From Planctomycetota bacterium (GTDB lineage: Bacteria; Planctomycetota; UBA1135; UBA2386), in NCBI GenBank assembly GCA_965228735.1, contig OZ245838.1:6304001-6368000 (forward strand): DNA of 64,000 nt, written 5' to 3'. This document shows positions 389-52,716 of the stretch, piece by piece. A program made the position numbers and the translations under genes. The stretch's first letter is position 1, and the number at the start of each line of letters is the position of its first letter. The notes beneath the pieces were generated by a model. It worked only from the letters and a program-made list of their open reading frames with translations, did not search any database and was not told the DNA's origin.

Positions 389-2380
389 TCAGAAGGACCC
401 TGTCAGCAGGGCGAGGGCGTCGGATACGACGGCGCCCAGAGCGTTCGTTCCCGGGTCGAGCACGAGGGCCTGGACGTAGAAGTTCACGCCGGCAAACGTC
501 CCGTTGTTCGGCAGGGAGATCGCGTGTTGCGCGATGCCGCCGGTACCGATCAGGATGACGTTCGCGTCCGGGCTGGCGTGGCCGGTGCAACCCGGGGCTC
601 CGAGGCTCGCGAGCGATAGCGGCAGCGGGCCGAACGGCGACGTCGTGTTCGACAGGCCGATCATCAGGAAGCCGACGTTGGTCGGCATGTTGTCCAGTTC
701 GACCGTCGTGGTCGTGCCGAGCTGCGGCCGGCTCGTGCCCACGGGCTGCAGCGTCGGAACGCCGAGTGAGCCGGCGCAGCCCGGCGCGTAGAACGTGATG
801 CTGCCCTGCGGGAAGGAGTTCTCCCTGAGGTAGTGCAGCTCGCCGACCCACTGCCGCGGCGCGAACTGCGGCGCGACGGTGAACGGTCCGTTCGGGACCC
901 ACGCGGCGGCGACCGGGGTGAGCGTGAGGTCAGCGTTGCTGATCGGAGCGCTCGCGTTGAGGTAATACGCGGAGTTGCCGTTGTGATAGATGCCGACGCC
1001 GTAGCTCCTGCCCGGCAGCAGCAGGATCGGGCGGTCGAGCACGACGCGCGCGGGCACGTTGGCGCCCGGCGTGATGCCCGTGGCGGTGGCGACGCGGCGC
1101 CACGCATCCGGGTTGGTCTCCTTCCCGAGCGCGCTGCCGTCGGTCAGGAACACCTCGATGGCCATCGGGTTGCCGGCCGGCGTGTAGCTGTTGCAGTCGA
1201 TCGCGCAGATCGACAGCGCTTCGGTCGCGTTCACCGTGAGGTCGAACATCACGACGCCGAACTCGTTGATGAAGCTCGCGGCGTTGTAGCCGCCCGTCGA
1301 CAGGCTGTCGCTCGCGATCGTGACGCGGCGGGTTCGGGACGACGTGCGGCAGCCGTTCGTCACCGTGAGCGTCGCCGCGTAGCTCCCGGGGCCGTAGGTC
1401 GTGAGCGGGTTCTGCAGCGTCGAGTCGACGTTGCCGTCGCTGTCGAAGTCCCACGCCCATGACAGCGGCGTGCCCGTGCTCTGGTCGGTGAACTGTACGT
1501 TGAGCGTCGGTGCCGGACCGGTGTTCGGGCTCGGATCGAAATCCGCCACGAGCGGGTCGATGCTCATGAGATCGGGCCAGACCACCGAGGTCGAGCCCGC
1601 CGCAGTCGTCACCGTGAGTCGCACCGAGTAGTCCCCGCAGGTGGCGTAGGTGAACGCCGGATTCTGCAGCGTCGAGTCGACCGTGCCGTCGTCCTCGAAG
1701 TCCCACGCCCAGCCCGTGATCGCCCCGCTCGCCGCCGTCGATAGGTCGCGGAACTGGACCAGGTGCGGGCTCGCGCCGGTCGGCTCACTGGCGGTGAAGT
1801 CGGCCTCGTCGCTCGTCGCGGGCGCGTAGTGCACGCGCACGTTCGCCTCACGTGGCGAGAACACGGTCGAGACGAACGGCTCGTTCTGCGCGGAGCCTGG
1901 CGTGATCGTCAGGTCACCGTTGGCGGATGGCGTCGAGTTGTTGCTGTAGCGCGTGGCCGCGCCGTGGTAGAGCACCGCGACGCCGTAGCTGCCGGGGGCG
2001 AGCACGAACGGCTTGTCGAGGATCGCGACCGTCGGGTTGTCGCGGCCGGCCGTGAACATGGTTGCGCGGCCGCGCAGCATCCACGTTCCCGGCGCCGGGC
2101 CGACGAGGTTGCCGACGTGTGAGACGCCCGCCGCGGTGGTGTAGACCGAGATGCTCGCCGGCGTCGCGCGCGGGTTCTGGCAGTTCACGTCGAAGCGGTG
2201 GATCGAGAGTCCCGCCGGGTTGGTCACGGTGACGTCGAAGTAGACCGCGCCGCCGACGCTGCCGCCGTTGTTGCTCGTGAAGGTCGTCGTGAGCGACTGC
2301 GCGGCGAGCGACGGGATGAGCAGGGCGAGCAGCAGAGCGAATCGGGCGCGGAGGCAAACGAGAGTGGCAGCCTGCAACAT
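389..2380 (-). CDS. Secreted protein: beta-sandwich repeat + 2 PKD domains + beta-sandwich repeat + shared C-terminal domain
   Basis: Signal peptide ending SLAA|QS; two PKD motifs (W(A)WDF..DG.VDST.QNP...Y...G.Y...LTVT); GAGGAG SD upstream; C-terminus FYAPGCAG...QALVLDPGTNALGAVVSDA. Confidence 0.85.
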   Translation of the reverse strand: MLQAATLVCLRARFALLLALLIPSLAAQSLTTTFTSNNGGSVGGAVYFDVTVTNPAGLSIHRFDVNCQNPRATPASISVYTTAAGVSHVGNLVGPAPGTWMLRGRATMFTAGRDNPTVAILDKPFVLAPGSYGVAVLYHGAATRYSNNSTPSANGDLTITPGSAQNEPFVSTVFSPREANVRVHYAPATSDEADFTASEPTGASPHLVQFRDLSTAASGAITGWAWDFEDDGTVDSTLQNPAFTYATCGDYSVRLTVTTAAGSTSVVWPDLMSIDPLVADFDPSPNTGPAPTLNVQFTDQSTGTPLSWAWDFDSDGNVDSTLQNPLTTYGPGSYAATLTVTNGCRTSSRTRRVTIASDSLSTGGYNAASFINEFGVVMFDLTVNATEALSICAIDCNSYTPAGNPMAIEVFLTDGSALGKETNPDAWRRVATATGITPGANVPARVVLDRPILLLPGRSYGVGIYHNGNSAYYLNASAPISNADLTLTPVAAAWVPNGPFTVAPQFAPRQWVGELHYLRENSFPQGSITFYAPGCAGSLGVPTLQPVGTSRPQLGTTTTVELDNMPTNVGFLMIGLSNTTSPFGPLPLSLASLGAPGCTGHASPDANVILIGTGGIAQHAISLPNNGTFAGVNFYVQALVLDPGTNALGAVVSDALALLTGSF

Positions 2381-2527
2381 GGTGGTTCTCCTCGGTTCCG
2401 GGTGTGGCGCCGCGGCGCGGCGATCCAGGGTCTCGCAGGATACGGCGGGACGGGGTCGGCTGCAGGGGGGGGCGCGGCGATCTTGCCCCTCGACCTCCCT
2501 GGCGAGACCGGTAACCTACCCCGCTCG

Positions 2528-3481: not shown

Positions 3482-3675
3482 TGGACCTGCTCTTCCGCAT
3501 CGCGGTCTACGTGCCGGTCCTGTTCCTCATCGCGATCGTCGTCGTCGCGCAGAACCACGCGGATGCACGGGGCACCCTGCAGGAAGCCGTGAAGCGCACC
3601 GGCCGCTGGGTCTGGTGGAGCGTGCTGCTCGTCGCGTTCATGCTCGCGCTCGAGTTCCTGTTCATCGGCTTCTAG
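3481..3675 (+). CDS. Small 2-TM membrane protein (64 aa)
   Basis: ATG overlaps the upstream TGA, GGAGG SD, two hydrophobic segments. Confidence 0.7.
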   Translation: MDLLFRIAVYVPVLFLIAIVVVAQNHADARGTLQEAVKRTGRWVWWSVLLVAFMLALEFLFIGF

Positions 3676-3753
3676 TTGGTTCTTTCGGGGCGAACTGGCC
3701 GGCGGATGAGCAGTCGGTCGCAATAGTCCGGGGCTCCGTTCGCACCTGCCCGG

Positions 3754-4674: not shown

Positions 4675-4691
4675 CGGCCGCGGTCGACGCC

Positions 4692-12257: not shown

Positions 12258-12349
<92 letters not shown>

Positions 12350-14655: not shown

Positions 14656-14745
14656 TGGCGGTGGGAGAGGGATTCGAACCCCCGGTCGGCTTGCACCGAC
14701 GCCGGTTTTCAAAACCGGTCCATTCGGCCGCTCTGGCATCCCACC
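14656..14745 (-). tRNA. tRNA-Ser(TGA)
   Basis: GGTGGGA/TCCCACC acceptor stem, GCCA end, anticodon arm CCGGT-TT TGA AA-ACCGG, long variable arm. Confidence 0.97.
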
Positions 14746-20800: not shown

Positions 20801-22726
20801 TCAGTAGATCAGCGTCTTGCCGCCGCTCGACATCGCGATGCCGTTCGTCGCGCTCGGGTCGAACACGAGCCACTGGAAGAACAGCGGCACGTTGCTGAAG
20901 CCCGGCGGCAGCGTCGGCATCACGAAGCGGAACTGCCCGTTCGCGCCCTGCGGGACGATGTTGCTGCGCATGTCGGGTGACACGAGCAGCTGGGATTCCG
21001 TGAAGCCGAAAGTCGCGAGGTTGACGGGCAGCAGGGTCGGGCCGCTCGCCACGTTGCTGAAGCCGACGTAGAGCGCGGCGAACGGGGCGGTGTTCGGCGC
21101 CATGCCTTCGAGCCGCAGCTCGAAGTTGCTGGTGCCCTCGAACGGCTGACCGCGCATCGTCGTCCGGCCGCGCAGGCTGCGGCCGAAGCGCCACGGCCCG
21201 TGCAGCTCGTAGAGCACGCTGCCCTGCCCGGTCTGCACGACCGCGAGCATGTGCATGCCGCCGCGGTTGTTCGGGTTCAGCAAGCGGTAGACCTCGAAAC
21301 CGCGCGCGATGCCGCCGGGCGGCCCGCCCGCGTTCGGCACCTGCAGGTTGCCCCAGAAGCGCGTGCCGGTCGGTCGGTGGTCATAGGCCGAGTACTCGGA
21401 GCCGTTGACGCGCAGCGTGCCGCGCGGCGTGGCCTCGGGCTGGCTGCTGAAGAAGTAGTAGCGGCCGAACGTGTGGTCGTAGCCGGCGCCCTGGGCGCGT
21501 TGCGGCAGGGACTGGAACGTGCGGAGCACGGCCCCCGTCGTGAGTGCGACCTCGTAGCCGAGGCCGCCCTGATCGGTGATCAGGAACGTGCCGGCGCCGA
21601 GATCGCCGTCGCGGTTGAACGCGATGCTCAGGGGCTCGGGACCGCCCGCGGCCGGCAGCGCTGCCGTCACGAACAGCGGTGTCAGCAGCGCGCCGGACAG
21701 AGCGTCGATCGCGCGGATCTCGACGCTGCCGCCGGGCGAGCCGCGGCGATCGACGATCGCGTAGACGACCTGCGTGTGCGGAGCCGTCGGCGAGGTTTGA
21801 ATGGTTCGCACCGTGAGGTCGGAGGCGCCGAACGGGGCCGCGGCCGGCGTGTCGGGCAGGTTGGTCGACGAGATCGGCTGGCCCGACGCGTTGAAGCGGA
21901 TCAGACGGTGGGGGAGGCCGGTGCCGGGCGCGAGCGCGCTGACCCAGTAGCTGCGCTGGAACGTCGCCGGGTTCTCCGTCAGCGCCGCGGCGACGCACGT
22001 CCGGCCGCCCGTCGCCGCCGTGAGGTTGATGCCGGTCTGCCCGAACGTCGAGTCGTCGACCTCGCCGAGCGCCTCGGCGTCGGCGTCGGCGTCCTCGACC
22101 TTCACGCAGCGACTGCTGACGAACAGGTCGTCGATCGCGACGTCGTTGTTGAGATCGGTGAACAGTTCGATCACGACGTCCTCGTCGTCGGGTTGCGGCC
22201 AGAGTTCACCCATGATCGTGACCGTCTCCCAGCCGCCGCCGACGGGCACCGACTCCCACGTCACCGAAGAACGGTCGTAGGCGGCGAGCTGCTCCTCGAG
22301 AGACGCCGTGATCTCGCCGACCGTGCCCTCGAGCGCGTCGAACTGCACCTCGAAGATCTTCACCCAGTTGACGTGCGGATCGTTGTCCGCGGTCAGGTCG
22401 ATCGACGCGGTCTGCGGCGAGCCGTTGCCGAGGATGCCGAGCACGTCCGTGCGGCCGGCCAGCGCCGGGATCACCTGCAGCGGACCAGTGGTCGCGAAGA
22501 CGGTCTGCTGCGGGTTGTACCACGACGCCGTCGCGACCTGCTGCGGCACGAACGGCGTCGCGCCGCTGAAGTCCCAGTACAGCGACATGGTCTCTTCGTC
22601 CTGCACGCCCCACCACGGCGGCGCGTCGAGCGGCGTCGGGATCTGAGCAGCGAGAGTGCTCGCGAGTACGGCGCTCAGCAGCGGGGCGGCGGTGCTTGCT
22701 AGCACGCTTCGGATGCGGTGGTTCAT
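20801..22726 (-). CDS. Secreted protein (beta-sandwich + propeller-like region) with shared C-terminal domain
   Basis: Signal ending TLAA|QI; C-terminus LPVNLATFG...FFQWLVFDPSATNGIAMSSG. Confidence 0.8.
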   Translation of the reverse strand: MNHRIRSVLASTAAPLLSAVLASTLAAQIPTPLDAPPWWGVQDEETMSLYWDFSGATPFVPQQVATASWYNPQQTVFATTGPLQVIPALAGRTDVLGILGNGSPQTASIDLTADNDPHVNWVKIFEVQFDALEGTVGEITASLEEQLAAYDRSSVTWESVPVGGGWETVTIMGELWPQPDDEDVVIELFTDLNNDVAIDDLFVSSRCVKVEDADADAEALGEVDDSTFGQTGINLTAATGGRTCVAAALTENPATFQRSYWVSALAPGTGLPHRLIRFNASGQPISSTNLPDTPAAAPFGASDLTVRTIQTSPTAPHTQVVYAIVDRRGSPGGSVEIRAIDALSGALLTPLFVTAALPAAGGPEPLSIAFNRDGDLGAGTFLITDQGGLGYEVALTTGAVLRTFQSLPQRAQGAGYDHTFGRYYFFSSQPEATPRGTLRVNGSEYSAYDHRPTGTRFWGNLQVPNAGGPPGGIARGFEVYRLLNPNNRGGMHMLAVVQTGQGSVLYELHGPWRFGRSLRGRTTMRGQPFEGTSNFELRLEGMAPNTAPFAALYVGFSNVASGPTLLPVNLATFGFTESQLLVSPDMRSNIVPQGANGQFRFVMPTLPPGFSNVPLFFQWLVFDPSATNGIAMSSGGKTLIY

Positions 22727-22777: not shown

Positions 22778-26441
<3,664 letters not shown>

Positions 26442-26449
<8 letters not shown>

Positions 26450-27113
26450 CCGACGGCCTCGACAGGTACCCCGACAACCGGGCCTGGGCGCGCGACAACA
26501 GCGCACGCACCGCCCCCTCGGTCGGCAGCCCCATCTCGGCGCAGATCTCGTCGGTGGAGAGCTCGAGGTAGCGCTTCAGCACGATGATCTCGCGCTCGCG
26601 GTCCGGCAGCTGCTGCAGCGCGACGCGGATCCGTTCGGCCAGCTCGGTCTCGTCGTGCACCTGTGACGGGGTCGCGTCCTTGCTCGGGATCGCCTCACGC
26701 ATGTGCTCGTCGATGCCGACGAGGCCGCCGTCCTGCGGCCGGCGCTTGCGCGCTTCGACGGCGCGGATGCGACGGATGATCTCGTATTCCGCGCCCTTCA
26801 GCAGCCACGCGAGGAACGAGCCCTCGCCGCGATACTCGAACTGATGCAGTCGCCGGAGCGCCGACAGGATCGCGTCCTGGGTCGCATCCTCGCTGTCCGC
26901 CATGAGCACCCGGTACTTCGGACCGATCAGCTTGCGCAGCGCACTTCGCAACCGATCGCGATAGCGCTCGAACAGCTGATCGATCGCGTCGCGATCCTGC
27001 TCCAGCGCGCGGCTGACCAGGTTGCGGGTGTTGTCGTCCAAGAACGGGGCGTGGGCGGGGAGCTTGCGATTTTGCCGCTTCCTGCCGCGGCGGCAAGTCG
27101 GGTCGGGCTTCAT
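26442..27113 (-). CDS. ECF sigma factor (kinase-associated)
   Basis: A..QLFERYR..L, DSEDATQD, F.YRGEGSF.AWL, TPSQ, ALQQLPDREREII.L, S..EI...MG...GAVR..LSRA. Confidence 0.9.
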
Positions 27114-33170: not shown

Positions 33171-33464
33171 ATGGCCAAGCGAGAGAACATCAGCGTGTCC
33201 TTCACCTCCAAGCAGGCCGACTTCCTGGCCGAATGCGTCGCGTCCGGCCGCTACCAAACCGTCAGCGAGGTCGTGCGCGAAGGGCTGCGGCTGCTCGAGG
33301 ACCAGCAGCGGCTGCGGGATGCCGAGGTCGAGCGCGCCCGGGCGTTGATCCGAGAGGGTGCCGAACAACTCGATCGTGGTGAGACGGTCGACGCGGACAC
33401 GTTCTTCGCGGACTGGGATCGCGAGCTCGCGGCCCTGGAGGCGCGACGAACGGACGATTCATGA
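33171..33464 (+). CDS. parD: Type II antitoxin, ParD (RHH) family
   Basis: ISVSFT..QA.F....VASGRY.T.SEVVREGLRLLE. Confidence 0.92.
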   Translation: MAKRENISVSFTSKQADFLAECVASGRYQTVSEVVREGLRLLEDQQRLRDAEVERARALIREGAEQLDRGETVDADTFFADWDRELAALEARRTDDS

Positions 33465-33784
33465 GTCGGATCCAGCTCTCGCGCGCGACCGAGCGTGACC
33501 GCCGGGACATCATGGATTTCACGATCGCGCGCTTCGGACCGAGCCAGGCCCGGCGCGTTCGTGATGCGCTCGAGCAGACGCTTCGCCGACTGCTCGAATC
33601 ACCAGGCCTCGGGCGCACCAATCCGGAGCTGGACCCGCCGGGCCACACGCTCCGCTACTACGTCCTGTTGCGGACGTTCGTGATCGTCTACGAATCCGTT
33701 CCCGATGGGATCCGCGTCGCCCGCTTGCTGCACGGCGCGCGCGACGTTGCGAGGGAACTCGGTGGTGACGTCGGGGATGAGTAG
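33461..33784 (+). CDS. parE: Type II toxin, ParE/RelE family
   Basis: LS..A..D...I...T..RFG..QA, L...PGLGR, I.Y......I.V.R.LHG.RD; ATGA overlap with parD. Confidence 0.9.
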   Translation: MSRIQLSRATERDRRDIMDFTIARFGPSQARRVRDALEQTLRRLLESPGLGRTNPELDPPGHTLRYYVLLRTFVIVYESVPDGIRVARLLHGARDVARELGGDVGDE

Positions 33785-33902: not shown

Positions 33903-33979
33903 TGGCACGCCCGGCAGGATTCGAACCTGCGACCATCGGCTTAGAAGGCCGGTGCTCTATCCAGCTGAGCTACGGGCGC
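33903..33979 (-). tRNA. tRNA-Arg(TCT)
   Basis: GCGCCCG/CGGGCGT acceptor stem, GCCA end, anticodon loop CT-TCT-AA, GGTTCGAATCC. Confidence 0.97.
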
Positions 33980-34135: not shown

Positions 34136-35119
34136 ATGCGCGCTACCACCACCGCAACCGCCGTTCTCTTCACTGTCACCATCGCCACCGCCCAGGCCCA
34201 GATCCAGGCGGCGTTCGACCCCTACGGCGAGTCGTGCAACGGCACGAGCGAGTCGGCGTGCCTCACGCAGAACGACGTGGGTCCAAGTCTGTCCGTCGGG
34301 TCGTTGCCCAACGAGTATGCCTACCCCGTCGTGAACACGACGGGCAACCCGATCCAGGTCGTCGGGTTCGAGGTCTTCACGGTGACGAACACCAACCCGG
34401 TCGAGACCGTCAACACGGCGGTCCACCGCGACGCCTCCGGGGCGGGCGCGGTGACGCATACCGCGCCGGACTTCACGGCCGCCGCCGTCGGCACGATCAC
34501 GGTCACCAACGCGCAGGCGTTCTATGCGACGACGGTGTATCCGCCGCTGACGATCGCGCCGGGCGAAGCGTTCTGGATCGCGCACGACTGCTTCAGCATC
34601 GTCTCACCCGCGGAGAACCTCGGTGGTGTCGCCGGGCCGGCCACGGTGCACTGGCGCCGGCCGAGCTACAACGGCAACGCCTGGACGACCTCGTCGTCCG
34701 TGACGAATCCGATCTTCAAGATCCGTTGCCTCGCGAGCAACGTGCCCGCCCCGGGTCTCACGGCGTCGTCGTTGCCCCAGCTCGGCGGCAACTTCGTGCT
34801 GGACGTGGTGGGCGGCGCGCCGAGCCTGTTCGCGTTCGTGATCTACTCGTTCGACAACACCCAGGTGTTCGGGTTGCCGACGCCGGTCGATCTCGCCTTG
34901 TTCAATGCGCCCGGGTGCTTCGGCTACGTGTCGCACGACGTCACCATCACGCTGCAACTCGACACGATGGGCCATGGTTCGACCGCGCCGTTCGCGGTTC
35001 CGAACAACCCGCTGTTCGACGGCCTCGTCTGGTACAACCAGGCCGCGGTCATTGCCCCTGGCGTCAATCCGTTGAGCATGCTCGCGAGCAACGCGGGGCA
35101 GGCCACCGTCGGGATGTGA
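34136..35119 (+). CDS. Secreted protein with the shared domain split around an inserted beta-sandwich
   Basis: Signal ending AQA|QI; FDPYGESCNG at the mature N-terminus; remainder LPQLG...APGC...NQAAVIAPGVNPL...SNAG at the C-terminus. Confidence 0.82.
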   Translation: MRATTTATAVLFTVTIATAQAQIQAAFDPYGESCNGTSESACLTQNDVGPSLSVGSLPNEYAYPVVNTTGNPIQVVGFEVFTVTNTNPVETVNTAVHRDASGAGAVTHTAPDFTAAAVGTITVTNAQAFYATTVYPPLTIAPGEAFWIAHDCFSIVSPAENLGGVAGPATVHWRRPSYNGNAWTTSSSVTNPIFKIRCLASNVPAPGLTASSLPQLGGNFVLDVVGGAPSLFAFVIYSFDNTQVFGLPTPVDLALFNAPGCFGYVSHDVTITLQLDTMGHGSTAPFAVPNNPLFDGLVWYNQAAVIAPGVNPLSMLASNAGQATVGM

Positions 35120-35201: not shown

Positions 35202-35879
35202 ATGCCCCGTTCCGACTCGAGTGCCCCGCATCGCGACCCGACGTCCTGGGGGCAGCTGATCGACAGCATCGACTCGGCGAACGTGTTCGTGCTGATCGCC
35301 GGTTGGCTCGGGCCGAAGGCGCGGCTGTCGGTCACGGTGGAGGACCTGTGGCAGGAGACCCTCTGGCTCGCCTGGCGCGACCGACAGCAGCACGAATGGG
35401 TCAACCTCCGCAAGTACCGGGCGTGGTTGCTCGGGATCGCGAAGCACCGAATCCGGGAGGTCGTGCGCAACCTCGGCCGGCAGAAGCGCGGGGGCGGCGT
35501 GCGGACGGATTCGCTGTCCGCGTTCGGCGGTGCGGACACGGCCGCTTCCTACCTGCCGCCGCAGTCGACGACGCCGAGTCGCGTCGCGTCCAACATGGAG
35601 CGGGCACGATCGCTCGAACAGGCGCTCGAGGCGCTCGACGAACCGTTGCGCGCGGTCGTGCGGTTGCGGCTGTTCGAGGAGGTGTCGTCGCAAGAGGCGG
35701 CTGACCGGCTCGCGATACCGCTGTCGACGGCGAAGGAGCGGTTCGTGCGCGGGACCAAGCGCTATCGGCTGGAGCTCGAGCGGTTGCTCGGCCGCGGCGG
35801 TGGCGACGGGGATCCGGACGACGGGGATGCCGACGACGGCGGCGCGTCGGCGACGACGACGCCGGGTGGGGCGCCGTGA
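35202..35879 (+). CDS. ECF sigma factor (kinase-associated)
   Basis: VEDLWQET, YRAWLLGIA.HRI, TTPSR, AL.AL.E..R.VV.LR.FE, E.A.RL.IP.ST.K.R. Confidence 0.88.
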   Translation: MPRSDSSAPHRDPTSWGQLIDSIDSANVFVLIAGWLGPKARLSVTVEDLWQETLWLAWRDRQQHEWVNLRKYRAWLLGIAKHRIREVVRNLGRQKRGGGVRTDSLSAFGGADTAASYLPPQSTTPSRVASNMERARSLEQALEALDEPLRAVVRLRLFEEVSSQEAADRLAIPLSTAKERFVRGTKRYRLELERLLGRGGGDGDPDDGDADDGGASATTTPGGAP

Positions 35880-38800
35880 CATCCGCGTCGCGTGACGATG
35901 ATCCCGCGTTCGCCGACCTGCTCGACGAACTGCTCGCGGCGTTGCTCGACGGCGAGGAGCCGGATCTCGTGAGCGTTGCCGAGCGCCACCCGGAGGCCCG
36001 CGAGCGGGTCGACGAGGCCTGGCGGCTGGCGTGTGACGTCGCGGGGCGGCGAGTGACGCCGCGACCGGTGCTCGGCGGCTACGAGGTCGTGCGGGAACTC
36101 GGGCGCGGCGGCATGGGATCGGTCTACCTCGCCAAGAACGAGCAGCTCGGCCGCGAGGTCGCCATCAAGGTGCTGCCGCACTCGTTCGGTCTGTCCGCAG
36201 CCAGCCGGCAGCGCTTCCTCGCCGAGGCGCGCGCGCTCGCGCAGGTGCACCACGAGAACATCGTCGGCATTCATCGCATCGTCGACGATGGTGAGCTGCT
36301 CGCGTTCGAGATGGAGTATGTCGATGGCCCGAGCCTGCAGACGCTCCTGTCGCACCTGCGCGCCGTGCGGGAGCGCACCGGCACCATGCCGACGCTGCGG
36401 GACGTCGCCGAACTGTTGCAGCTCGACGAGCATGCGCTCGGGGCTCGCAGCCTGACGCAGTTCTTCGTGCGGATCGGGCTCGCGGTCGCACGGGCGCTCG
36501 GCGCGGTGCACGACCGTGGGTTCGTGCATCGGGATGTCAAGCCGGCCAACATCCTGCTGCGGTGCGACGGCCAGCCCGTCCTGGCCGACTTCGGCCTCGT
36601 GCGCGACACCTCGCTGCAGCGCACGAGCCGGACCGGTTTCGCGGGGACGCCCGTCTACTCGTCTCCCGAGCAGATGCGTGGGCATTCGCCCGTCGGTTCG
36701 GCGACCGACGTCTACGCCCTCGCGGTGACGCTGTACGAATGCCTGACGCTGACGCCGCCGTTCGCGGGGCGCACGACGACGGACCTGTTGCGCCGGATCG
36801 AGGCTGGGCGGGTGCAGCCGTTGCGGCGACTCGCGCCCGATGCGCCGCGCGACCTCGAGACGATCGTCACGCGGGCGATGGAGCTGGAGCCGCACAACCG
36901 GTATGGCAGCGGTGGCGAACTGGCCGACGATCTCGAGCGGTTGCTCGAGCTGCGGCCGATTCGAGCGCGGCCCGTCGGGCTCGGTCGCCGACTCGGCAAG
37001 TTCTCGCGCCGCAACCGTGTCGCCCTGCTCGCCGGTTGTGCGGGTGCGCTCCTGGTGCTGCTGCTCGTCTGGCCGTTGTTCGCCCACGTGCAGGCCGCCG
37101 CCAGAGCCCAGGACGCGGCGGCGGCGCACGTTCAAAGCGCCCGCCAGCAGCTGCTGGCGCCGGCCTGTCGGGCGTTCGCTGCGGGTCGAACACGATCGTT
37201 CGCGGCGCGCGCTGTCGATCCGTCGGCGGATCCGCTGCAGTCGGCGGTTGCCGACTACGAACGCGCGCTCGCGCTGCAGCCGGCGAATGGCGCGGCGCGC
37301 GCCGAACTCGCGGTCGTGCGGATGGCGCTGTGGCAGCGCGACCTCACCGTGCAGAGTCGTGAGGGGCTCGCGGCGGCGATCGCAACGGCCGAATACGCGA
37401 CGCTCACGCGCGCGCTGCCGCCGCTCGTGCGCGAAGTCGCTCGCGGCATCGCGAGTGGAGCGGCGTTGCCGCCCGACCTGAGTGCGCGGCTGACGCGGGA
37501 CTCCGAGCGCGCGGCGCTCGGGTTGCTCGGCTACCTGCTCGGGGAACCCCGCCTGGTCGAGGTCGCCTGGGGAACGGCGGGCGTGGATGTCGGGAATGCC
37601 AGTCTGCGGGATGCGATCCAGGGTCTGCAGCTCCTGGCCGATGGCGACTCCGAGGCTGCATTCGCGCGGCTGCGCGCGGCCCATCGGTCGTTCCCCGATG
37701 TCGGCCTGGAGCTCGAACTCGCCGAGGCCGCGCTCGCGATGGGCGAGGTGACGCGAGCCGAACAGTGGTTCGGCCGCACGGCCGATTCCGGCGCCCGCGA
37801 TCCGCGGCGGCTGCGCGTGCGGGCGGACCTGCTCGCGGCGCGTGGTGACGATGAAGCGGCCGCCGCGCTGTACGGCGAGCTCGCGGAGGACTTCGTTCAT
37901 GATCCGACGCCGTTCTTCCGGCTCGCGCAGCTCGCCGCGCGCGCCGGCCGGCTCGAAGCCGCGGCGGCGCAACTCGAGGCGATCCTCGCCGCGTGGCCCG
38001 ACGAGCCGCGCTTTCGGCTGGCGCGCGCGCGGATCGCGCTGCAGCAGCGCGACAGCGCGCGCTACCTCTGGCAGGTGCTGGCCGTCCTGCGGCTCGATCC
38101 CGCGCGCCTGACCGCCGGTGGCGTCGCCCGGCGGCGCGAGATCCTGCGTATCGGCGGCCTGCTGCGGTTGCTCGGTGCCGACCTCGATCGGGCGGGCGGC
38201 CGGGTCGGAACCACGTTCCTCGGCGGCGAACAGCCCCTGCGCGCGCTGCTACCGAGCGAGCGGGTCGACCGACTCGAAGATCTCCTGCCGCACCTGGCCA
38301 TCGTGCTGGACTCGATGCCGGTCAGGATTCGCGGCGCGGGCATCGATCCCCTCACCCGTCGGTTGTTCGGCGAGTTGCCGTTGGCACTGGCGAGGCTGCC
38401 GGCCACCGCCGCCTGGCTCGGACCGGCACGGCGCTGGGCGTGCGAGCTGATGCCGACGGCCTTGTGGGCGGCCTATCCGACGCTCCAGCAGCTGCATCGG
38501 CAGCTGATCCTCACGTTGCCGGGTTCGGGCTGGAACTCCGTCGATCTGGTCGCGGTCGCGCCGCCGGTCGCGCTGCACCCCGTCCACGAGTTCGGCTCCG
38601 ACCTGCGCGTGGGCGCGGACTGGAACGGCGACGGCACGCCGGAGGTGCTCGTCGGCTGTCAGGCGAAGGACCCGCGATCGGCGCCGGGCCACGCGTTCGT
38701 CGTCGACGGACGGACGGCTGCCGTTCTCGCGTCGGTGGAACGACCGGCCGGCGACCACCTCTTCGGGTACGCCGTGCAGCTGCTCGGCGATGTCGATGGT

Positions 38801-39718
38801 GACGATGTCTCGGACTGGTGCGTCGGCGCTCCGGGTGGCGTCGCCGACGCGCGCGACGGCTTCGTCGAACTGCTGTCGGGCCGGGATCAGACCGTGATCG
38901 GTCGCGTGCGAGAGCCCGCCGTCGCTTTCGGAGTCGCGCTCGCGGCACTCGGCGATGTCGACGGTGACGGTGTGCCGGACTTCGCGGTCGGGGTGCCCCC
39001 GATCGTGCAGAACGCGACGCCTCAGGGCCACGTCTCGATCTACTCGGGGCGCACGCGGGAACGGCTGCGCGAGCTGCGGAACGACATCCCGGGCGTCTGG
39101 TTCGGGGCCTCCCTGGCAGCGGTCGGCGACGTCGATGACGACGGCTGCGTCGATCTGCTCGTCGGTGGCAACTATGGCGGCGCAGCAGGCCTCGTCCGGC
39201 TGTACTCGGGCCGCGCCGGCGTGCCGCTGCACGAGTGGCGCGACGCCTCGACGGTCAGCGGGTTCGGTGCGTTCGTGTACGGGTTCGGAGACCTGGACGG
39301 CGACGATGTCGGCGACATCGGCGTCGCGTCGGTCAGTGTAGACGGCCATCTGGCCGATCGCCTCGCCGTGTTCTCGGGCGCGGACGGGCGGACGCTCAAT
39401 GTCTTCGAATCCGGTCGACCGGGCTCACGTCTCGGGGTCGCTGCCGTGCGCTATGGCTGTGGCCTCGGGCCTCCGGTGCTCGCGATCGGAGCGCCGCTGG
39501 GTGGGAACGCGCAGACCGGTCTCGTCGAGCTGTGGTCGATCGACGGCCGGCCGCTGTCGTCGCTGCTCGGCGCCGCCCCGGCCGGGTTCTTCGGTGGTCG
39601 CCTGGTCTCCGTCGGCGACACGAACGGCGACGGTCGCGACGAGCTGTTCGTCAGCCGGGGGCGGGGCAACGGCGGGGTCGACCGTGTCGACTCGCGGAGC
39701 CTCACGATCTCCCGGTAG
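35876..39718 (+). CDS. Hanks-type Ser/Thr kinase + TM + TPR-like region + FG-GAP beta-propeller
   Basis: LGRGGMGSVY, HRDVKPAN, DFG, GTPVYSSPEQ; TM helix; six Dx(D/N)xDx..(D/E) loops with FG/GAP motifs. Confidence 0.92.
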   Translation: MTSASRDDDPAFADLLDELLAALLDGEEPDLVSVAERHPEARERVDEAWRLACDVAGRRVTPRPVLGGYEVVRELGRGGMGSVYLAKNEQLGREVAIKVLPHSFGLSAASRQRFLAEARALAQVHHENIVGIHRIVDDGELLAFEMEYVDGPSLQTLLSHLRAVRERTGTMPTLRDVAELLQLDEHALGARSLTQFFVRIGLAVARALGAVHDRGFVHRDVKPANILLRCDGQPVLADFGLVRDTSLQRTSRTGFAGTPVYSSPEQMRGHSPVGSATDVYALAVTLYECLTLTPPFAGRTTTDLLRRIEAGRVQPLRRLAPDAPRDLETIVTRAMELEPHNRYGSGGELADDLERLLELRPIRARPVGLGRRLGKFSRRNRVALLAGCAGALLVLLLVWPLFAHVQAAARAQDAAAAHVQSARQQLLAPACRAFAAGRTRSFAARAVDPSADPLQSAVADYERALALQPANGAARAELAVVRMALWQRDLTVQSREGLAAAIATAEYATLTRALPPLVREVARGIASGAALPPDLSARLTRDSERAALGLLGYLLGEPRLVEVAWGTAGVDVGNASLRDAIQGLQLLADGDSEAAFARLRAAHRSFPDVGLELELAEAALAMGEVTRAEQWFGRTADSGARDPRRLRVRADLLAARGDDEAAAALYGELAEDFVHDPTPFFRLAQLAARAGRLEAAAAQLEAILAAWPDEPRFRLARARIALQQRDSARYLWQVLAVLRLDPARLTAGGVARRREILRIGGLLRLLGADLDRAGGRVGTTFLGGEQPLRALLPSERVDRLEDLLPHLAIVLDSMPVRIRGAGIDPLTRRLFGELPLALARLPATAAWLGPARRWACELMPTALWAAYPTLQQLHRQLILTLPGSGWNSVDLVAVAPPVALHPVHEFGSDLRVGADWNGDGTPEVLVGCQAKDPRSAPGHAFVVDGRTAAVLASVERPAGDHLFGYAVQLLGDVDGDDVSDWCVGAPGGVADARDGFVELLSGRDQTVIGRVREPAVAFGVALAALGDVDGDGVPDFAVGVPPIVQNATPQGHVSIYSGRTRERLRELRNDIPGVWFGASLAAVGDVDDDGCVDLLVGGNYGGAAGLVRLYSGRAGVPLHEWRDASTVSGFGAFVYGFGDLDGDDVGDIGVASVSVDGHLADRLAVFSGADGRTLNVFESGRPGSRLGVAAVRYGCGLGPPVLAIGAPLGGNAQTGLVELWSIDGRPLSSLLGAAPAGFFGGRLVSVGDTNGDGRDELFVSRGRGNGGVDRVDSRSLTISR

Positions 39719-39848: not shown

Positions 39849-41264
39849 ATGACCGACCACCGATTCTCCGTTCGATTCTCGACGTTCGCTCTCGCCCTCG
39901 CGGCGCCCCTTGCCGCCCAGTGGGGTGAGCAGACCCCGGCCAGCGCGCCGTCCGCGCGCTCGGGTCACGGCATGTGCTTCGACGGCAGTCAGGCGCTGCT
40001 CGTTGGCGGCTCCGCCGGCTTCTCGACCAGCAACGAACTCTGGTCCTACGACGGTGCCAACTGGTCGGCCCTCGCCGCGTTGCCGAACGCTGGCGGCGTG
40101 ACCGGTGTCGAGCTGGTCTACGACTCCCTGCGCGGTGTCGCGGTGCTCTACGGCGGTCTCAACACCTCGTTCTTCGGCGGCCCGTCGATCGACGAGACCT
40201 GGGAGTTCGACGGGGTCAACTGGACGCAGAACCTCACCGCGACGACGACGCCCGGCGGCCTCGGCATCTACGGCGCCTGCTTCGACTCGACGCGGAACGT
40301 GATGGTCCTCTACGGCGGCAGCGCCGACTCGTTCTTCCCGATCGCCTCCGCGGCGCACTGGGAGTACGACGGCACGAGCTGGACCCAGGTCAGCGCCGCC
40401 GCGACGCCGGGCCCGCTCGAGCGCCCCGCGATGTGCTACCACGCCGGCGGCGGCGTGACCGTGATGTTCGGCGGCATCGACCCGCAGACCGGCGGGGTCG
40501 ACACGACCTGGCTGTACGACGGGGCGACCTGGCAGGCGGCGGGCGTGGCCGGGGCGCGGCCCGTCGAGCGCACGGGCTGCAAGATGGCCTACGACTCCGT
40601 TCGCGAGGTGTGCGTGCTGAGCGGCGGCATGAACCCGATGAACGGCCAGCCGATCGTCGACACCTGGGAGCTCGCGTTCGACGCGGGGACCACGACCTGG
40701 ACCTGGACGCAGGTGCCGACGAGCACGACGCCGCATCGCGACGGCGCGATGACGTTCCTCCCGGGCATCCGGCAGGTCGTCGAGTTCGGCGGCATCGATC
40801 CCGCGACGTTCTCGGATTCGGGCGCGACCTGGCACTACGGTGCGAAGGTCAGCACGTACGGCGCGGGCTGCGCCGGCACGTTCGGGGTCCCGAGCCTGAC
40901 GGCCGCCGACGCCCCGCGCCTCGGATTCGACTACGCCGTTACCCTCGGCAACCTCGATCCGGCCGCGACCATCGCGGCGTTCGTCATCGGTCTGTCGGAT
41001 CAGACGAGCACGTTCGGGGCGCTGCCGTTCGATCTCAGCGGTGCCGGCATGACGGGCTGCTCCCTGCTCGTGAGCAACGATGTCTCGGTGTTCATCGGCA
41101 CGGATCCTTCGGTGCCGGGCACGGCGACGCTGACGACCGCGCTGCCGAGCGACGTCACGTTCCTCGGGCTGCCGTGGTTCCACCAGGGCCTGTCACTCGA
41201 CTTCGCGGCCAACGCAGCCGGGCTGACGATCTCCAACGCCGTGGCGAGCACGGTCGGCAACTGA
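39849..41264 (+). CDS. Secreted Kelch-type beta-propeller with shared C-terminal domain
   Basis: Signal PLAA|QW; repeats M.YD......V.(F/Y)GG...DTW.YDG..W; YGAGCAG...SNAVASTVGN. Confidence 0.87.
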   Translation: MTDHRFSVRFSTFALALAAPLAAQWGEQTPASAPSARSGHGMCFDGSQALLVGGSAGFSTSNELWSYDGANWSALAALPNAGGVTGVELVYDSLRGVAVLYGGLNTSFFGGPSIDETWEFDGVNWTQNLTATTTPGGLGIYGACFDSTRNVMVLYGGSADSFFPIASAAHWEYDGTSWTQVSAAATPGPLERPAMCYHAGGGVTVMFGGIDPQTGGVDTTWLYDGATWQAAGVAGARPVERTGCKMAYDSVREVCVLSGGMNPMNGQPIVDTWELAFDAGTTTWTWTQVPTSTTPHRDGAMTFLPGIRQVVEFGGIDPATFSDSGATWHYGAKVSTYGAGCAGTFGVPSLTAADAPRLGFDYAVTLGNLDPAATIAAFVIGLSDQTSTFGALPFDLSGAGMTGCSLLVSNDVSVFIGTDPSVPGTATLTTALPSDVTFLGLPWFHQGLSLDFAANAAGLTISNAVASTVGN

Positions 41265-41266
41265 TC

Positions 41267-42640
41267 ATGCGCCGGGCTCTGGTTCTGCTCACGGCATCGC
41301 TCGCGTCGACATCGCTACCAGCCCAATGGGGAGCGGTGTCGACGACGGGCACTCCGGCTCCGCGCTCGGACGCGCTCCTCGCCTACGACCTGCCGAACCA
41401 GCGCATGCTGTTGTTCGGCGGGAACTGGAGCAACGACTTCTACAGCCTGCAGAACGGCGTCTACACCGCGCTGACGCCGGCGTCACTGCCGGGAGCGCGG
41501 ACTCGCGCCGCGATCGCGGTCGACTCCATCCTCGGCACCGTGGTGCTGTACGGCGGCGACGGGGGCGGAAGCCAGCTCGCGCTCGACGAAACGTGGCTCT
41601 GGAACGGGACCGACTGGCAGTTGCTGCAGACGACGGTCTCGCCGGGCGGTCTGGCGCGTCACTGCATGGCGTTCGACGTGGCTCGGCAGGAGACCGTGCT
41701 GTTCGGTGGTCGCCAGAACAGCTGGAACAGCACCCAGGCCTTCGGCGACACGTGGGTGTTCGACGGCACGGACTGGGCGATGGCGACGCCGCTGAACTCG
41801 CCGCCAGCGCGCCTGAACGCCGCGTTGGCGTATCACCCGGCGCTCGGCGGGGTGATGCTCCATGGTGGCGAGGATCCGCAGAGTGGTGCGCTGGGTGACT
41901 CCTGGTGGTTCGATGGCCTCGATTGGACGCAGCTGCCGACGACCGGGAACCAACCCTCACCGCGGAGCAAGGCCAACCTCGTGCCGATCCTCGGGCGCGC
42001 GGTGGTCGTGCTCCACGGCGGTGAAGATCCGACGACCCTCCAGATCCAGAACGACACCTGGGAGCACGACGGTTCGAGTTGGCGTCGCGTCGACAACGTC
42101 TACGGCGGCATCTACCCCGCGCGCCGCGGGGCCGCGGTGGCGCACGACTTCGCGCTGGACCGCCTCGTGGCGGTCGGCGGCAAGCTCGCCAACGGATCGT
42201 TGCGGAACGACACCTGGGAATACGGGGCGCAGTGGCAGCGGTTCGGAACCGGCTGCCCGGGCTCGAACGGCCGGCCGGACCTCGCCGGCGGCTCGCTGCC
42301 GCGGCTGGGGTTCACGTGCACGGCGGCGGTGACCAACCTGCCGCCCAGTGCGGGGGCAGCGATCATGACGGTCGGGCTCTCGCGCCAGCAGTGGGCCTTC
42401 GGTTCGCTGCCGATGCTCCTCGACCCGTTCGGCATGACGGGTTGCCGCGCCTACGCCAGCGCCGAGGTCGCGACTGCGGTCGCGGCGGTGGCCGGGGTCG
42501 CGAACTGGAGCTGGGCCGTGCCGAGCGATCCCGCGTTCGTCGGGCAGCCGTTCCATCTGCAGGCGATCGTCGTCGACCCGGCGGCCAACGCTGCCGGCGC
42601 GACCGTCTCCAACGCCGCCACGATGGTCGTCGGTTGGTAG
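41267..42640 (+). CDS. Secreted Kelch-type beta-propeller paralog with shared C-terminal domain
   Basis: ATG 2 nt after the upstream stop; signal SLPA|QW; same repeats; FGTGCPG...QAIVVDPAANAAGATVSNA. Confidence 0.87.
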   Translation: MRRALVLLTASLASTSLPAQWGAVSTTGTPAPRSDALLAYDLPNQRMLLFGGNWSNDFYSLQNGVYTALTPASLPGARTRAAIAVDSILGTVVLYGGDGGGSQLALDETWLWNGTDWQLLQTTVSPGGLARHCMAFDVARQETVLFGGRQNSWNSTQAFGDTWVFDGTDWAMATPLNSPPARLNAALAYHPALGGVMLHGGEDPQSGALGDSWWFDGLDWTQLPTTGNQPSPRSKANLVPILGRAVVVLHGGEDPTTLQIQNDTWEHDGSSWRRVDNVYGGIYPARRGAAVAHDFALDRLVAVGGKLANGSLRNDTWEYGAQWQRFGTGCPGSNGRPDLAGGSLPRLGFTCTAAVTNLPPSAGAAIMTVGLSRQQWAFGSLPMLLDPFGMTGCRAYASAEVATAVAAVAGVANWSWAVPSDPAFVGQPFHLQAIVVDPAANAAGATVSNAATMVVGW

Positions 42641-49353: not shown

Positions 49354-49376
49354 GAAATCGGTAGAGTGGCGGCGCC

Positions 49377-51062
49377 ATGCCGACGCTCGCGCCGATGCCA
49401 GAACCGACGAAGTGCGGGATGCGGGGCCTGCTCGCGATCGCGTTGTCGGTCGGCCTGGTGAGCGCCCAGTCGACCTGGCCCGCGCCGCCGACGCCGCCGG
49501 GCAATCCGACGACGACGGCGAAGGTCCTGCTCGGGCAGGCGCTGTTCTGGGACGAACAGCTGTCGTCGACGGGCACGGTCGCGTGCGGCACGTGCCACGT
49601 CTTCTCGCACGGCGGCGCCGATCCGCGCGCGCTGGACGCGGTGCATCCGGGGCCGGACGGGGTCTTCGGTACCCCGGACGATGGCCGTGGTTCGCCGGGC
49701 GTGCCGCCGAGCGACGGCGCCGGCCGCTACGGCTGGGTGCCGGCGACCGGGTCGAGCCCGCAGCTGACGCGGCGCACGTCGCCAACCGTGATCAACGCGG
49801 CGTTCCAGCGGTCGCAGTTCTGGGACGGCGTCGTGGAGAGCGGTGTCTTCCGCGATCCCGTGACCGGCGTGGTCGTGCTGCAGCAGGACGCGTTCCTCGA
49901 GAACCAGATCGCCGTGCCGCCGCTGAGCGCAGCCGAGATGGGGCACCCGGGGCGGGACTGGCAGGACGTCGTGCGCGCCGTGCGGCGCCAGGTGCCGCTC
50001 GCGCTCGCGAGCGGGTTGCCGCCGCGACTCGCGACGTTCGTGCACGGGCGGCGCTACGCCGAGCTCTTCGAGCGCGCGTTCGGTTCGCCCGGCGTCGACG
50101 CGGCGCGCATCGTCATGGCGATCGCGGCCTACATGCGAACGCTCGTGGCCGACCGGTCGCCGATCGACCTGTTCCTCCGCGGGCAGGCGCCGTTCCCGGC
50201 GGGCGCGACCAACGGCTTCGTCGAGTTCGGCGCGCGGTGCTCGCAGTGTCACAAGGACCTGAGCACGGCGTCCGTGCTCGAGGGCCCTGCGAGCATCGAC
50301 TTCCGCAATACCGGTGTGCGGCCACCGGGCGAGGACCGCGGCCGCTTCCTCGTCACGCAGGACCCGGCGGACGACGGGAAGTTCAAGAGCGTCGATCTGC
50401 GGAACGTCGCGTTGCGCGGGCCGTTCTTCCACAACGGCAGCGCGCGGACCCTGACCGAGGTGCTGCAGTTCTACGATCGCGGCGGGGACTTCGCGGCCAA
50501 CCGCGATCCGCTCGTGACCGCGTTGCAGGGGCAGCTGCCGCCGATCACGCGCGCGGAGATCCTCGCGTTCCTGCACGAGCTCACGGACCCGCGGGTCGCG
50601 GCCGAGACGCCGCCGTTCGACCGGCCGCGGCTGTTCCACGAGGGCGTGCGCGCGCCGCGGCTCCTCGGCACGGAGTCGGCGTGCGGGGCGGCGCCAGCCC
50701 CTCGGGTGATCGCCGTCGAGCCGGCGCTGTTGTCGCGCGGCGGCGTGACCGTTGCGGTCGACGGCGCGGACCCGGGCAGCCACGCGTTCCTCGGGCTCGA
50801 CGTCGCGGCCGCCGGAACGCCGCAGCTGCTCGGCGGCGTGGCCGTCTGGCTCGGACTGACGCCGGGAGTCGACGTGGTCTACGCCGGTAGGCTCAGCGCG
50901 CCGGCGGGCCCCGGCAGCGGTCACACCTCCGTGCGAGTGCCATTGCCGCAGCAGCCCGGCGCGGCCGGGCAGTCGCTGTTCGGGCAATGGTTCGTCACGA
51001 GCACGGGTTGCGCGAACGGGCTGGCGGCGTCGCGGGCGTTCGAGCTACGGTTGTTTCGCTGA
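49377..51062 (+). CDS. Di-heme cytochrome c peroxidase/MauG-superfamily protein with shared C-terminal domain (start may be 49419)
   Basis: LG.ALFWD..LS, CGTCH, QFWDG, CSQCH, FK...LRNVAL..PFFHNG. Confidence 0.9.
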   Translation: MPTLAPMPEPTKCGMRGLLAIALSVGLVSAQSTWPAPPTPPGNPTTTAKVLLGQALFWDEQLSSTGTVACGTCHVFSHGGADPRALDAVHPGPDGVFGTPDDGRGSPGVPPSDGAGRYGWVPATGSSPQLTRRTSPTVINAAFQRSQFWDGVVESGVFRDPVTGVVVLQQDAFLENQIAVPPLSAAEMGHPGRDWQDVVRAVRRQVPLALASGLPPRLATFVHGRRYAELFERAFGSPGVDAARIVMAIAAYMRTLVADRSPIDLFLRGQAPFPAGATNGFVEFGARCSQCHKDLSTASVLEGPASIDFRNTGVRPPGEDRGRFLVTQDPADDGKFKSVDLRNVALRGPFFHNGSARTLTEVLQFYDRGGDFAANRDPLVTALQGQLPPITRAEILAFLHELTDPRVAAETPPFDRPRLFHEGVRAPRLLGTESACGAAPAPRVIAVEPALLSRGGVTVAVDGADPGSHAFLGLDVAAAGTPQLLGGVAVWLGLTPGVDVVYAGRLSAPAGPGSGHTSVRVPLPQQPGAAGQSLFGQWFVTSTGCANGLAASRAFELRLFR

Positions 51063-51066
51063 CGTC

Positions 51067-52716
51067 ATGCAGCCTCTCGTTCCAGCCATCCTGCTGTTCA
51101 CCGCTCTCGTGGGCGACGCGGCTGCGCAGACCCTTTGGCCGCCACCGCCGACCCCGGCCGGCAATCCCACGACCGCGGCGAAGGTCTTGCTCGGCAAGGC
51201 GCTGTTCTGGGACGAACAGCTGTCGACGACCGGGTCGGTGGCGTGCGGCACGTGCCACATCCTGAGTCACGGCGGCGCCGATCCGCGTTCTCTGACGGCG
51301 TTGCACCCCGGCCCCGACGGCGTGTTCGGCACGCCTGACGACCGCCGGGCGTCTCCCGGTGTGCCGGCGAACGACGGTGGCGGAACCTACACGGGAGCTC
51401 CGGGTTTCGGCGCCGCGCCGCAGGTGACTCCGCGCGCGGCCCCGACGGTCATCAACGCTGCGTATCTCGGCGAACTGTTCTGGGACGGTCGGGTCAGGGA
51501 CGGCGTGTTCCGCGACCCCGTGACGGGCCAGGTAATGCTGAATGGCGATGCCCAACTCGAGAACCTGATCGCCGAGCCGCCGATCGATGCAATCGAAATG
51601 GGGCACCCGGGACGCTCGTGGGCCGACGTCGTCCAGCGGGTGCAGGGCGTCGAGCCGCTCGCGCTCGCCTCGCACCTGCCGGGTCCGCTCGCCACGTTCG
51701 TCTCGGGCCAGACGTATCCGGCGCTCTTCCAGCAGGCGTTCGGTTCCGCCGGCGTCGACGCGAGCCGGATCATCATGGCGATCGCGGCCTACATGCGCAC
51801 CCTCGTGAGCAACGGCTCGCGCGTCGACGCGTTCCTCGCCGGCACCGGTACGCTGACGACCGTCGAACAGAACGGACAGCAGTTCGCCGCGCAAATCTGC
51901 GTGCGCTGTCACGGCGACATCGATGACAACGTGTTCCTGCTGGGGCCGGCTTCGGTGCGATTTCGCAACACGGGTGTCCGGCCCATCGCCGAGGACCCGG
52001 GTCGCAGCGCGGTCACTCAGAGCGCGGCGGACGACGGCATGTTCAAGGCGCCGGACTTGCGCAACGTTGCGTTGCGCCCGCCGTTCTTCCACGACGGGAG
52101 CGCCGCGACGCTGGCCGATGTCGTCGCGTTCTACGCGCGCGGCGGTGACTTCCACGTCAACAAGAACCCGCTGATGAATGCGCTGCCCGGGTTTTTCGCC
52201 GCGTCGCCGCGCCTCGAGGCGGAGCTCGTGGCGTTTCTCGAGGCGTTCACGGATCCGCGCGTCGAACACGAGCTGCCGCCGTTCGATCGCCCGACGTTGT
52301 TCACCGAGGGGCCGAACCGGAACCTGCTGTTCCCCGCGGGCACGCCCGGCACCGGCGGCGTCGTGCCGCGCGCGGTCGCCGTCGAGCCGGCGCGCATCGG
52401 CGGTCGGGTCACGGTCGCGGTCGATCGCGGGCAGCCGGGTGAGTTCGCGCTGCTCTGGTGGGACGTCGCGGTGGCCCCGGGTCCACGTACGATCTTCGGG
52501 TTGTCCGTGCAGCTCGCGCTCACGCCGGCGACGACGCTGGCCGTCGCGGGCGCGCTGCAGGGCGCGCCGGGCGAGGCGTGGTTGTCCTGGTCGCAGCTCC
52601 TGCCGGCCGACCCGGTGTATGCCGGGCAACGGCTCTTCGGGCAGTGGCTCGTGACCGACCCCGCCGGCCCGAACGGGTTCGCGACGTCCGGCGCGTTCGG
52701 TCTGCGGCTGCACTGA
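51067..52716 (+). CDS. Di-heme cytochrome c peroxidase/MauG-superfamily paralog with shared C-terminal domain
   Basis: CGTCH, LFWDG, CVRCH, FK.P.LRNVAL.PPFFHDG; highly similar to the upstream gene. Confidence 0.9.
   Translation: MQPLVPAILLFTALVGDAAAQTLWPPPPTPAGNPTTAAKVLLGKALFWDEQLSTTGSVACGTCHILSHGGADPRSLTALHPGPDGVFGTPDDRRASPGVPANDGGGTYTGAPGFGAAPQVTPRAAPTVINAAYLGELFWDGRVRDGVFRDPVTGQVMLNGDAQLENLIAEPPIDAIEMGHPGRSWADVVQRVQGVEPLALASHLPGPLATFVSGQTYPALFQQAFGSAGVDASRIIMAIAAYMRTLVSNGSRVDAFLAGTGTLTTVEQNGQQFAAQICVRCHGDIDDNVFLLGPASVRFRNTGVRPIAEDPGRSAVTQSAADDGMFKAPDLRNVALRPPFFHDGSAATLADVVAFYARGGDFHVNKNPLMNALPGFFAASPRLEAELVAFLEAFTDPRVEHELPPFDRPTLFTEGPNRNLLFPAGTPGTGGVVPRAVAVEPARIGGRVTVAVDRGQPGEFALLWWDVAVAPGPRTIFGLSVQLALTPATTLAVAGALQGAPGEAWLSWSQLLPADPVYAGQRLFGQWLVTDPAGPNGFATSGAFGLRLH

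Follow-up and report, generated by a model that had tools for sequence, protein, structure and literature searches.

We wanted to know why seven secreted proteins, encoded within one 64,000-nucleotide stretch of a Planctomycetota genome (contig OZ245838.1, positions 6,304,001 to 6,368,000; hereafter the window), end in the same domain of approximately 130 amino acids. We call this domain the module and any protein that bears it a carrier. The source genome, labelled G000, has 7.19 Mb and 69% GC and is 93% complete. An earlier note on the window had reported these seven open reading frames (ORFs) and had suggested a lineage-specific module for targeting, anchoring or polymerising. All seven were present, and their last ~130 amino acids aligned. 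Our preferred reading, at a probability of about one half, is that the module serves as an uncleaved, lineage-specific address: it would direct folded cargo to the outer surface, probably through type II secretion, and keep it there.

The module is a very large domain family

A profile built from the seven tails only detected 183 ORFs at E<=1e-3 among the 61,526 six-frame ORFs of G000. After iteration it detected 272 ORFs, and there were no matches in a reversed-sequence decoy. The seven window copies matched the iterated profile with E values from 3.7e-27 to 8e-08; since they were its seeds, the independent evidence comes from the other copies of the genome. Sub-profiles were then applied to the 5,305 genes predicted on G000 by our own gene caller. 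We obtained 329 firm carriers, with no decoy match, and a further 31 at E<=0.01, where 2 of 907 decoys also matched. There are in total approximately 360 carriers among the 5,305 genes (6.8% of genes, 9.6% of residues), and the expectation of a very large family genome-wide was correct. Module copies share approximately 20-40% identity. A cysteine-free subfamily of 20 copies aligns to the main profile with a probability of 94.5% over 49 columns.

The prediction that the module was undescribed agreed with our searches of Pfam, NCBIfam and PDB sequences. No family was matched in a Pfam scan of 137 copies, neither Pfam nor NCBIfam had a family for any of the seven window tails, and the best PDB sequence hit had an E value of 0.3. 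All 30 nearest clusters in the ESM Atlas (30/30) were without a name, and the family as a whole comprised 35,031 matching clusters at 50% identity. No published description was found in the literature covered, outside of which lay subscription papers and bioRxiv supplements, including the tables of 10.1101/817700. We conclude that the module is a real, very large and unnamed domain family.

Within the phylum, the module was detected in 66 of 301 Planctomycetota genomes, among them G000 and every one of the 17 from its family or order; related genomes in this count are not independent, and divergent variants may escape detection in the negatives. The remaining 65 matching genomes comprised 59 with multiple copies (7 or more of the 14 candidates scored gave a match) and six with 1-2 copies. 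Multi-copy presence in 59 of the 300 other genomes supports a lineage-restricted expansion.

Predicted fold

We modelled the module with AlphaFold, using the copy from the protein at 39849..41264. The model is an immunoglobulin (Ig)-like sandwich of seven strands (pLDDT 97.4, pTM 0.89). Covariation among 416 copies paired strands C with F, F with G and B with F, and placed the C-C' loop on the F-G loop; both loops are hydrophobic and conserved. Cys6 and Cys61 were coupled (both present in 226 copies, neither in 13, a single one in 1 and 18) and are predicted to form a disulfide. Gln103 is conserved in 98% of the 416 copies. Lysine makes up 0.2% of the module, and lysine and arginine together 2.7%.

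A wide structural search with this model returned generic Ig domains, the best of them LAIR1 (Z 8.8, root-mean-square deviation (rmsd) 2.5, 92 residues aligned), and the 770 chains at Z>=5 included no outlier. No C-terminal domain (CTD) of the type IX secretion system (T9SS) was prominent in this search, and a kinship to such domains may still exist. Judged by the model, the fold of the module is known and its family is not, and the fold gives no function.

Position, passengers and signal peptides

The module is present once per protein (272 domains in 272 ORFs) and is never tandem. In 306 of the 329 firm carriers (93%) it lies within 30 amino acids of the C-terminus. In 12 carriers it is inserted, and the 31-45 amino acids that follow resemble the last strands of the passenger; in 11 it is N-terminal or internal. 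The strict C-terminal position proposed earlier was therefore not borne out (23 exceptions in 329), and a strictly C-terminal, cleaved sorting signal is not supported, because of these inserted and N-terminal or internal copies. Twelve carriers with a signal peptide are no longer than 200 amino acids, and by eye approximately 10 of them consist of signal peptide and module only. Such N-terminal, inserted and stand-alone copies fit a folded domain that is retained.

The pattern of many passengers on one module was confirmed, as the passengers of 278 carriers formed 96 clusters. A Pfam search of 79 passengers identified Kelch and other propellers, peptidases (S8, M14, M43, trypsin), sulfatase, beta-lactamase, dehydrogenase, LamG, PKD and Vps10, and many were without a family.

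Signal peptides were called by a crude heuristic, which flags 33% of other genes. It detected them in 224 of 269 carriers; of the 5,036 remaining genes it flagged 1,683, and among 1,270 internal segments used as controls, 52. Of 214 carriers with a candidate signal peptidase I site, 189 had glutamine directly after it, and so did 576 of 1,404 other predicted Sec proteins. As a separate observation, Gln at +1 is common in the Sec proteins of G000, an apparent Q-rule outside Bacteroidetes. A segment resembling a transmembrane (TM) helix after residue 45 was observed in just 4 of 269 carriers.

Carriers form a low-charge class of the secretome

We analyzed the summed content of lysine, arginine and glutamate (K+R+E) in the 1,206 Sec-type, TM-free proteins of G000 longer than 150 amino acids and observed a bimodal distribution. 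Carriers made up 248 of 288 proteins below 0.10, 27 of 61 between 0.10 and 0.125, and 2 of 857 above (carrier set of 371, 42 of which were sought only among low-charge tails). Passengers with the module removed were still low, with a median K+R+E of 0.082 (n = 297), compared with 0.168 (n = 1,490). The passenger of a carrier was lower in K+R+E than its non-carrier paralogue in 19 of 22 pairs (p = 1.2e-4), and several pairs with a small difference later turned out to include divergent carriers. Within the secretome, carriers thus stand apart as a class of low charge. Since low charge is typical of extracellular proteins, we infer that carriers occupy a different compartment, outside the outer membrane.

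Five other low-charge secreted proteins of G000 end in another shared C-terminal domain (...DIAIDD...), which is presumably MAM-like (C1:5689978-5691477, 5970101-5972017, 7038004-7040904, 2954019-2955896 and 891893-895762).

Other lineages place their own tails in the slot of the module

We compared relatives of a window di-heme enzyme at 79 loci. Ten ORFs without a module match were dropped (five cut by the end of the locus or contig; five short, frameshifted or below threshold). The relatives keep the module. Among 75 scored foreign rows, 47 end within 6 amino acids after it and 28 have a further tail (20 Acidobacteriota, four Verrucomicrobiota, three Pseudomonadota, one Phycisphaerae). In domain-rich planctomycetes the enzyme ends at the module, whereas in other lineages a tail follows in 28 of 30 copies. 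Sixteen of the genomes concerned have 0-2 module copies, and nine others have 9-150.

In 14 proteins scanned against libraries the tails were FG-GAP repeats, Soli_cterm (TIGR03437), DUF4214 and fn3. Two more types, recognized by eye, we take to be a dockerin-like tail and a short 'IF..GFE'-type end. Soli_cterm is present in 35 copies in G303 and 90 in G304, where it is the tail, in 3 copies in G305 and in none in G301 or G000. The FG-GAP tail is present in 25 copies in G301, 100 in G316 and 46 in G314, with none in G303 or G000. The FG-GAP and Soli_cterm tails are mass-produced tags of their host genomes. In the enzyme tree, three different tails fall inside one supported acidobacterial clade. 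Soli_cterm, the Blastocatellia FG-GAP tail and DUF4214 (PF13946) resemble the module in being mass-produced, lineage-specific terminal modules that sit on the same enzyme and are mutually exclusive by genome. They differ from it in length (225-290 amino acids) and show no sequence match to it. Our search found no literature on the mechanism of Soli_cterm.

A different domain, of 310 amino acids and ending in W-S-R, follows the module at L041:538-1467 and L042:517-1440 (both minus strand) in G208 and G176, and matches nothing in Pfam or NCBIfam. With 2 matches per genome, it was ruled out as a mass tag.

The second comparison involved a beta-helix protein, PF28492. Its carrier in G000, encoded near a TonB-dependent receptor gene (L178:9111-11012, minus strand), has the strongest codon bias of all carriers (rank 5 of 5,037). 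Its 120 listed homologues comprise 46 with the module at the end, 31 with a probable variant recognized by its motif, 18 with a dockerin-like tail (PF00404 in 10 of these), 15 without a tail and 10 with ends of other types. Poly30_07210, from the cultured strain Saltatorellus ferox Poly30, is one of these homologues. The alignment of the Poly30-type tail to the module profile was weak (12.7%, E 0.002, against 0.09% for a reversed control) but kept its register along 90 columns, and this tail is probably homologous to the module. Some homologues of approximately 1,020 amino acids outscore those of 630, which suggests an internal duplication.

Dockerins (PF00404), as used in dockerin/cohesin display, share with the module a single terminal copy per passenger and this same slot. 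The module differs from them in being all-beta, without a duplicated calcium-binding loop. None of its 137 copies matched PF00404, and a profile comparison with the dockerin-like tails was at background level (0.28%). No cognate scaffold was found among the candidates for the module. In both comparisons, the module sits in a slot where other lineages put terminal tails of their own.

Export machinery and candidate partners

G000 encodes seven secretins. These include a GspD that has apparent GspE/F genes next to it, loci of the type IV pilus-like and Tad-like kinds, and a locus in which paired TPR-lipoprotein secretins occur together with ExbBDD. The type II secretion genes include the GspD-type secretin, a GspK-like protein and 12 prepilin-type N-termini. 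The GspK-like protein has 547 amino acids, is encoded apart from the GspD locus (L079:1263-2903, minus strand), and is longer than a typical GspK. A beta-barrel heuristic applied to G000 revealed no obvious large novel translocon. During an Omp85 search one TGA was observed inside a BamA match (C1:2878387-2879346, minus strand); the called gene of 890 amino acids is intact over Omp85 positions 2-322, and this is probably an edge effect.

We screened for partners in 47 chosen genomes, namely 21 rich in the module, 6 with a single copy and 20 without it. The GspK-like protein was present in 20/21, 2/6 and 1/20 of these, respectively, and a Big_5 lipoprotein in 17/21, 1/6 and 0/20. A candidate scaffold is a family of lipoproteins of approximately 1,100 amino acids that combine Big_5 domains and glycine-rich repeats with the conserved C-terminal sequence LRLPFRF (L081:2873-6364, L082:2765-6196). 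Paired TPR-lipoprotein secretins with ExbBDD were rejected as a specific partner, because 40 of the 47 genomes have them, among these 14 of the 20 module-free ones. A MamK-like actin was rejected likewise (15/21, 2/6 and 5/20, 22 of 47 in total). G000 encodes this actin; at L075:856-19599 it lies beside two TPR-lipoprotein secretins, an ExbB, two ExbD and two TPR proteins, and the secretin pair is predicted to be highly expressed. A MamK-like actin is reported for Saltatorellota (10.1101/817700). The co-distributed translocon, protease or scaffold that had been envisaged was not recovered, as none was shown to be specific to the module in the 47 genomes.

What the module may do

The reading that we favor can be set out as a series of steps. 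Carriers would cross the inner membrane by Sec, most of them exposing Gln at +1; of the five ranked steps we consider this the most certain. They may then fold in the periplasm, forming the predicted disulfide, before passage through the outer membrane. That carriers would end outside the outer membrane comes second in certainty. Third, the folded module would be read by a lineage-specific partner, so that a gene from a foreign lineage gains the tag of its host. Fourth, the route through the outer membrane would be type II secretion. Least certain is the last step, in which the module is kept on its cargo and attaches it without a covalent bond to a protein, lipid or glycan of the envelope; the conserved hydrophobic C-C' and F-G loops possibly provide the contact.

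Several observations weigh against this reading. Cysteine parity in carriers showed no even-cysteine bias (130 even, 122 odd, 3 with none). The charge split is slightly biased, as 31-42 carriers were sought only among low-charge C-termini, and composition is the single line of evidence for where carriers are located. In the slot comparisons, 15 of the 120 beta-helix homologues are tail-less, two Pyrinomonadaceae di-heme enzymes end at the module, one of them from G314 with its 46 FG-GAP tails, and the 310-amino-acid tail has just its two matches per genome. The quick enzyme tree has a backbone without resolution, which leaves origin and direction of transfer unsettled. Anchoring and export would both give equivalent slots, so that this evidence does not tell them apart, and to our knowledge no function is established for Soli_cterm, DUF4214 or these dockerin-like tails. 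No partner of the module was identified among the candidates screened; the patterns of the GspK-like protein and the Big_5 lipoprotein, obtained with single-protein queries that fade with distance, may only track kinship.

The best of the alternatives, which we nevertheless consider unlikely, is that the module is purely an export signal, similar to the Ig-like CTD of T9SS. A translocon of the outer membrane would read it, the cargo would be released or attached otherwise, and the module would perhaps be cleaved. The type A CTD of Bacteroidota (TIGR04183) is likewise an Ig-like, seven-stranded sandwich on many unrelated Sec-exported passengers, commonly with Gln at +1 of the mature protein. 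Its reading is lineage-specific: according to PMC11285876, T9SS CTDs are incompatible between species, and in our comparisons foreign hosts add their own tag. The 93% C-terminal placement also fits this alternative, as does the similarity to PorU, whose C-terminal region matched the model (Z 7.3, rmsd 3.0, 95 aligned), but this match ranks 46th, level with unrelated Ig domains. A cleaved terminal signal leaves unexplained the 23 N-terminal, internal or inserted copies and the approximately 10 module-only genes. The module also differs from these CTDs in its length of ~130 amino acids, conserved Cys pair, near-invariant Gln and near absence of lysine (0.2%), in its tolerance of N-terminal, inserted and stand-alone positions, and in the lack of any sequence match (seven proteins searched in NCBIfam and Pfam, 137 copies in Pfam). 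G000 gave no match to TIGR04183 or SprA (TIGR04189); the control genomes were silent too, and PorV, PorU and PorK-N were not searched.

The module is also distinct from further kinds of terminal or surface modules, among them PEP-CTERM and SLH, which the earlier note had set aside. PEP-CTERM/exosortase and GlyGly-CTERM/rhombosortase share the many-to-one C-terminal pattern on exported proteins. Their tails are short and consist of a motif, a TM helix and a basic cluster, whereas the module is a folded soluble domain with neither TM helix nor basic cluster. The SLH domain (PF00395) consists of three short helical repeats, in contrast to the single all-beta module, which has no Pfam match.

A second and distinctly improbable alternative is an accessory binding or spacer domain which acts without a partner, for example on an external glycan or surface, and which has become widespread among extracellular proteins. 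Di-heme enzymes of other phyla with 0-2 copies do keep the module, usually with its Gln changed to R, and the generic Ig fold is common to adhesin repeats (SiiE, Z 7.9; invasin, Z 7.3). However, unlike spacers the module is never tandem, it is borne by 248 of 288 low-charge secreted proteins, whose functions vary widely, and it is swapped one-for-one with dockerin-like tails.

The least probable is that the module self-assembles into a coat, fibre or matrix that displays passengers, with module-only proteins as plain subunits: its single, terminal copy, its conserved hydrophobic loops, the ~10 module-only genes and the tissue-like aggregates with extensive matrix of cultured relatives (10.1101/817700) would suit this, but no high expression is predicted for module-only genes (codon-bias rank 0.08-0.73), carriers as a class are average (median 0.47), the copies share little identity and the model is a complete sandwich. 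Among the functions named at the outset, targeting or anchoring is the best reading, and polymerising has no support from codon bias.

The seven carriers of the window and their neighbours

Inspection of the sequences revealed a Sec signal peptide ending in A-Q on all seven window carriers, as claimed before; the heuristic missed one of them (51067). Their module copies are 22-39% identical to the first copy, with P, P, Q and S invariant. The first carrier (389..2380, minus strand) has 663 amino acids, with signal peptide, PKD domains and the module at about 392-775. The carriers at 20801..22726 (minus strand, 641 amino acids, module at about 20804-21193) and 34136..35119 (plus strand, 327 amino acids, module at about 34721-35116) have no Pfam family, so that 'propeller-like' as a passenger type was not confirmed, whereas the PKD, Kelch and di-heme assignments were. 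Two Kelch proteins follow on the plus strand, one of 471 amino acids (39849..41264, module at about 40854-41261), which provided the folded copy, and one of 457 (41267..42640, module at about 42239-42637), which starts at 41267 and not at the upstream GTG at 39974. The last two carriers, also on the plus strand, are enzymes of the di-heme CCP/MauG family, with 547 amino acids (49419..51062, module at about 50682-51059) and 549 (51067..52716, module at about 52336-52713). Relatives of the latter in other phyla have host-type tails after the module. The di-heme copies score weakest of the seven, in agreement with their reported divergence.

Two apparent pairs of an extracytoplasmic function (ECF) sigma factor and a Ser/Thr kinase lie directly upstream of carriers, at 22778-27113 (minus strand, upstream of the 641-amino-acid protein) and 35202-39718 (plus strand). 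In the whole genome, 35 of 70 Ser/Thr kinase genes have a carrier within two genes, whereas 2,000 rotations gave 15.0 on average and never a value as high. The window also contains three tRNA genes (12261-12349, 14659-14745 and 33906-33979, all on the minus strand). Beside a tRNA, two short adjoining ORFs (33171-33784, plus strand) resemble by eye a ParD/ParE-type antitoxin-toxin pair.

Significance

The present analysis adds, as new results, the charge class, both slot-swap comparisons and the screening of candidate partners. As a single domain, the module can serve to mark what is likely the extracellular proteome in several families of uncultured Planctomycetota. The pattern of swaps predicts a role in localisation for the orphan tails Soli_cterm, DUF4214 and the Blastocatellia FG-GAP tail. 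As the cultured strain Poly30 has a probable variant of the module, tests are feasible. If the module were a transplantable type II secretion tag, the long-open question of how type II secretion selects folded cargo would become directly testable.

In summary, we tentatively suggest, as a broader picture that is possible and less probable than the reading above, that a deep-branching group of Planctomycetota, to which the cultured, shapeshifting Saltatorellus probably belongs, sends essentially all of its extracellular proteins (about 7% of genes) through an undescribed export-and-display system. The tag that this system would recognize is a single folded Ig-like domain, placed at one or the other terminus or within a loop. 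Such a system would be an independent counterpart of T9SS with a receptor of its own, and the module possibly a dedicated type II secretion tag. The tails of Acidobacteriota and Phycisphaerae would then be further, mutually incompatible tags.

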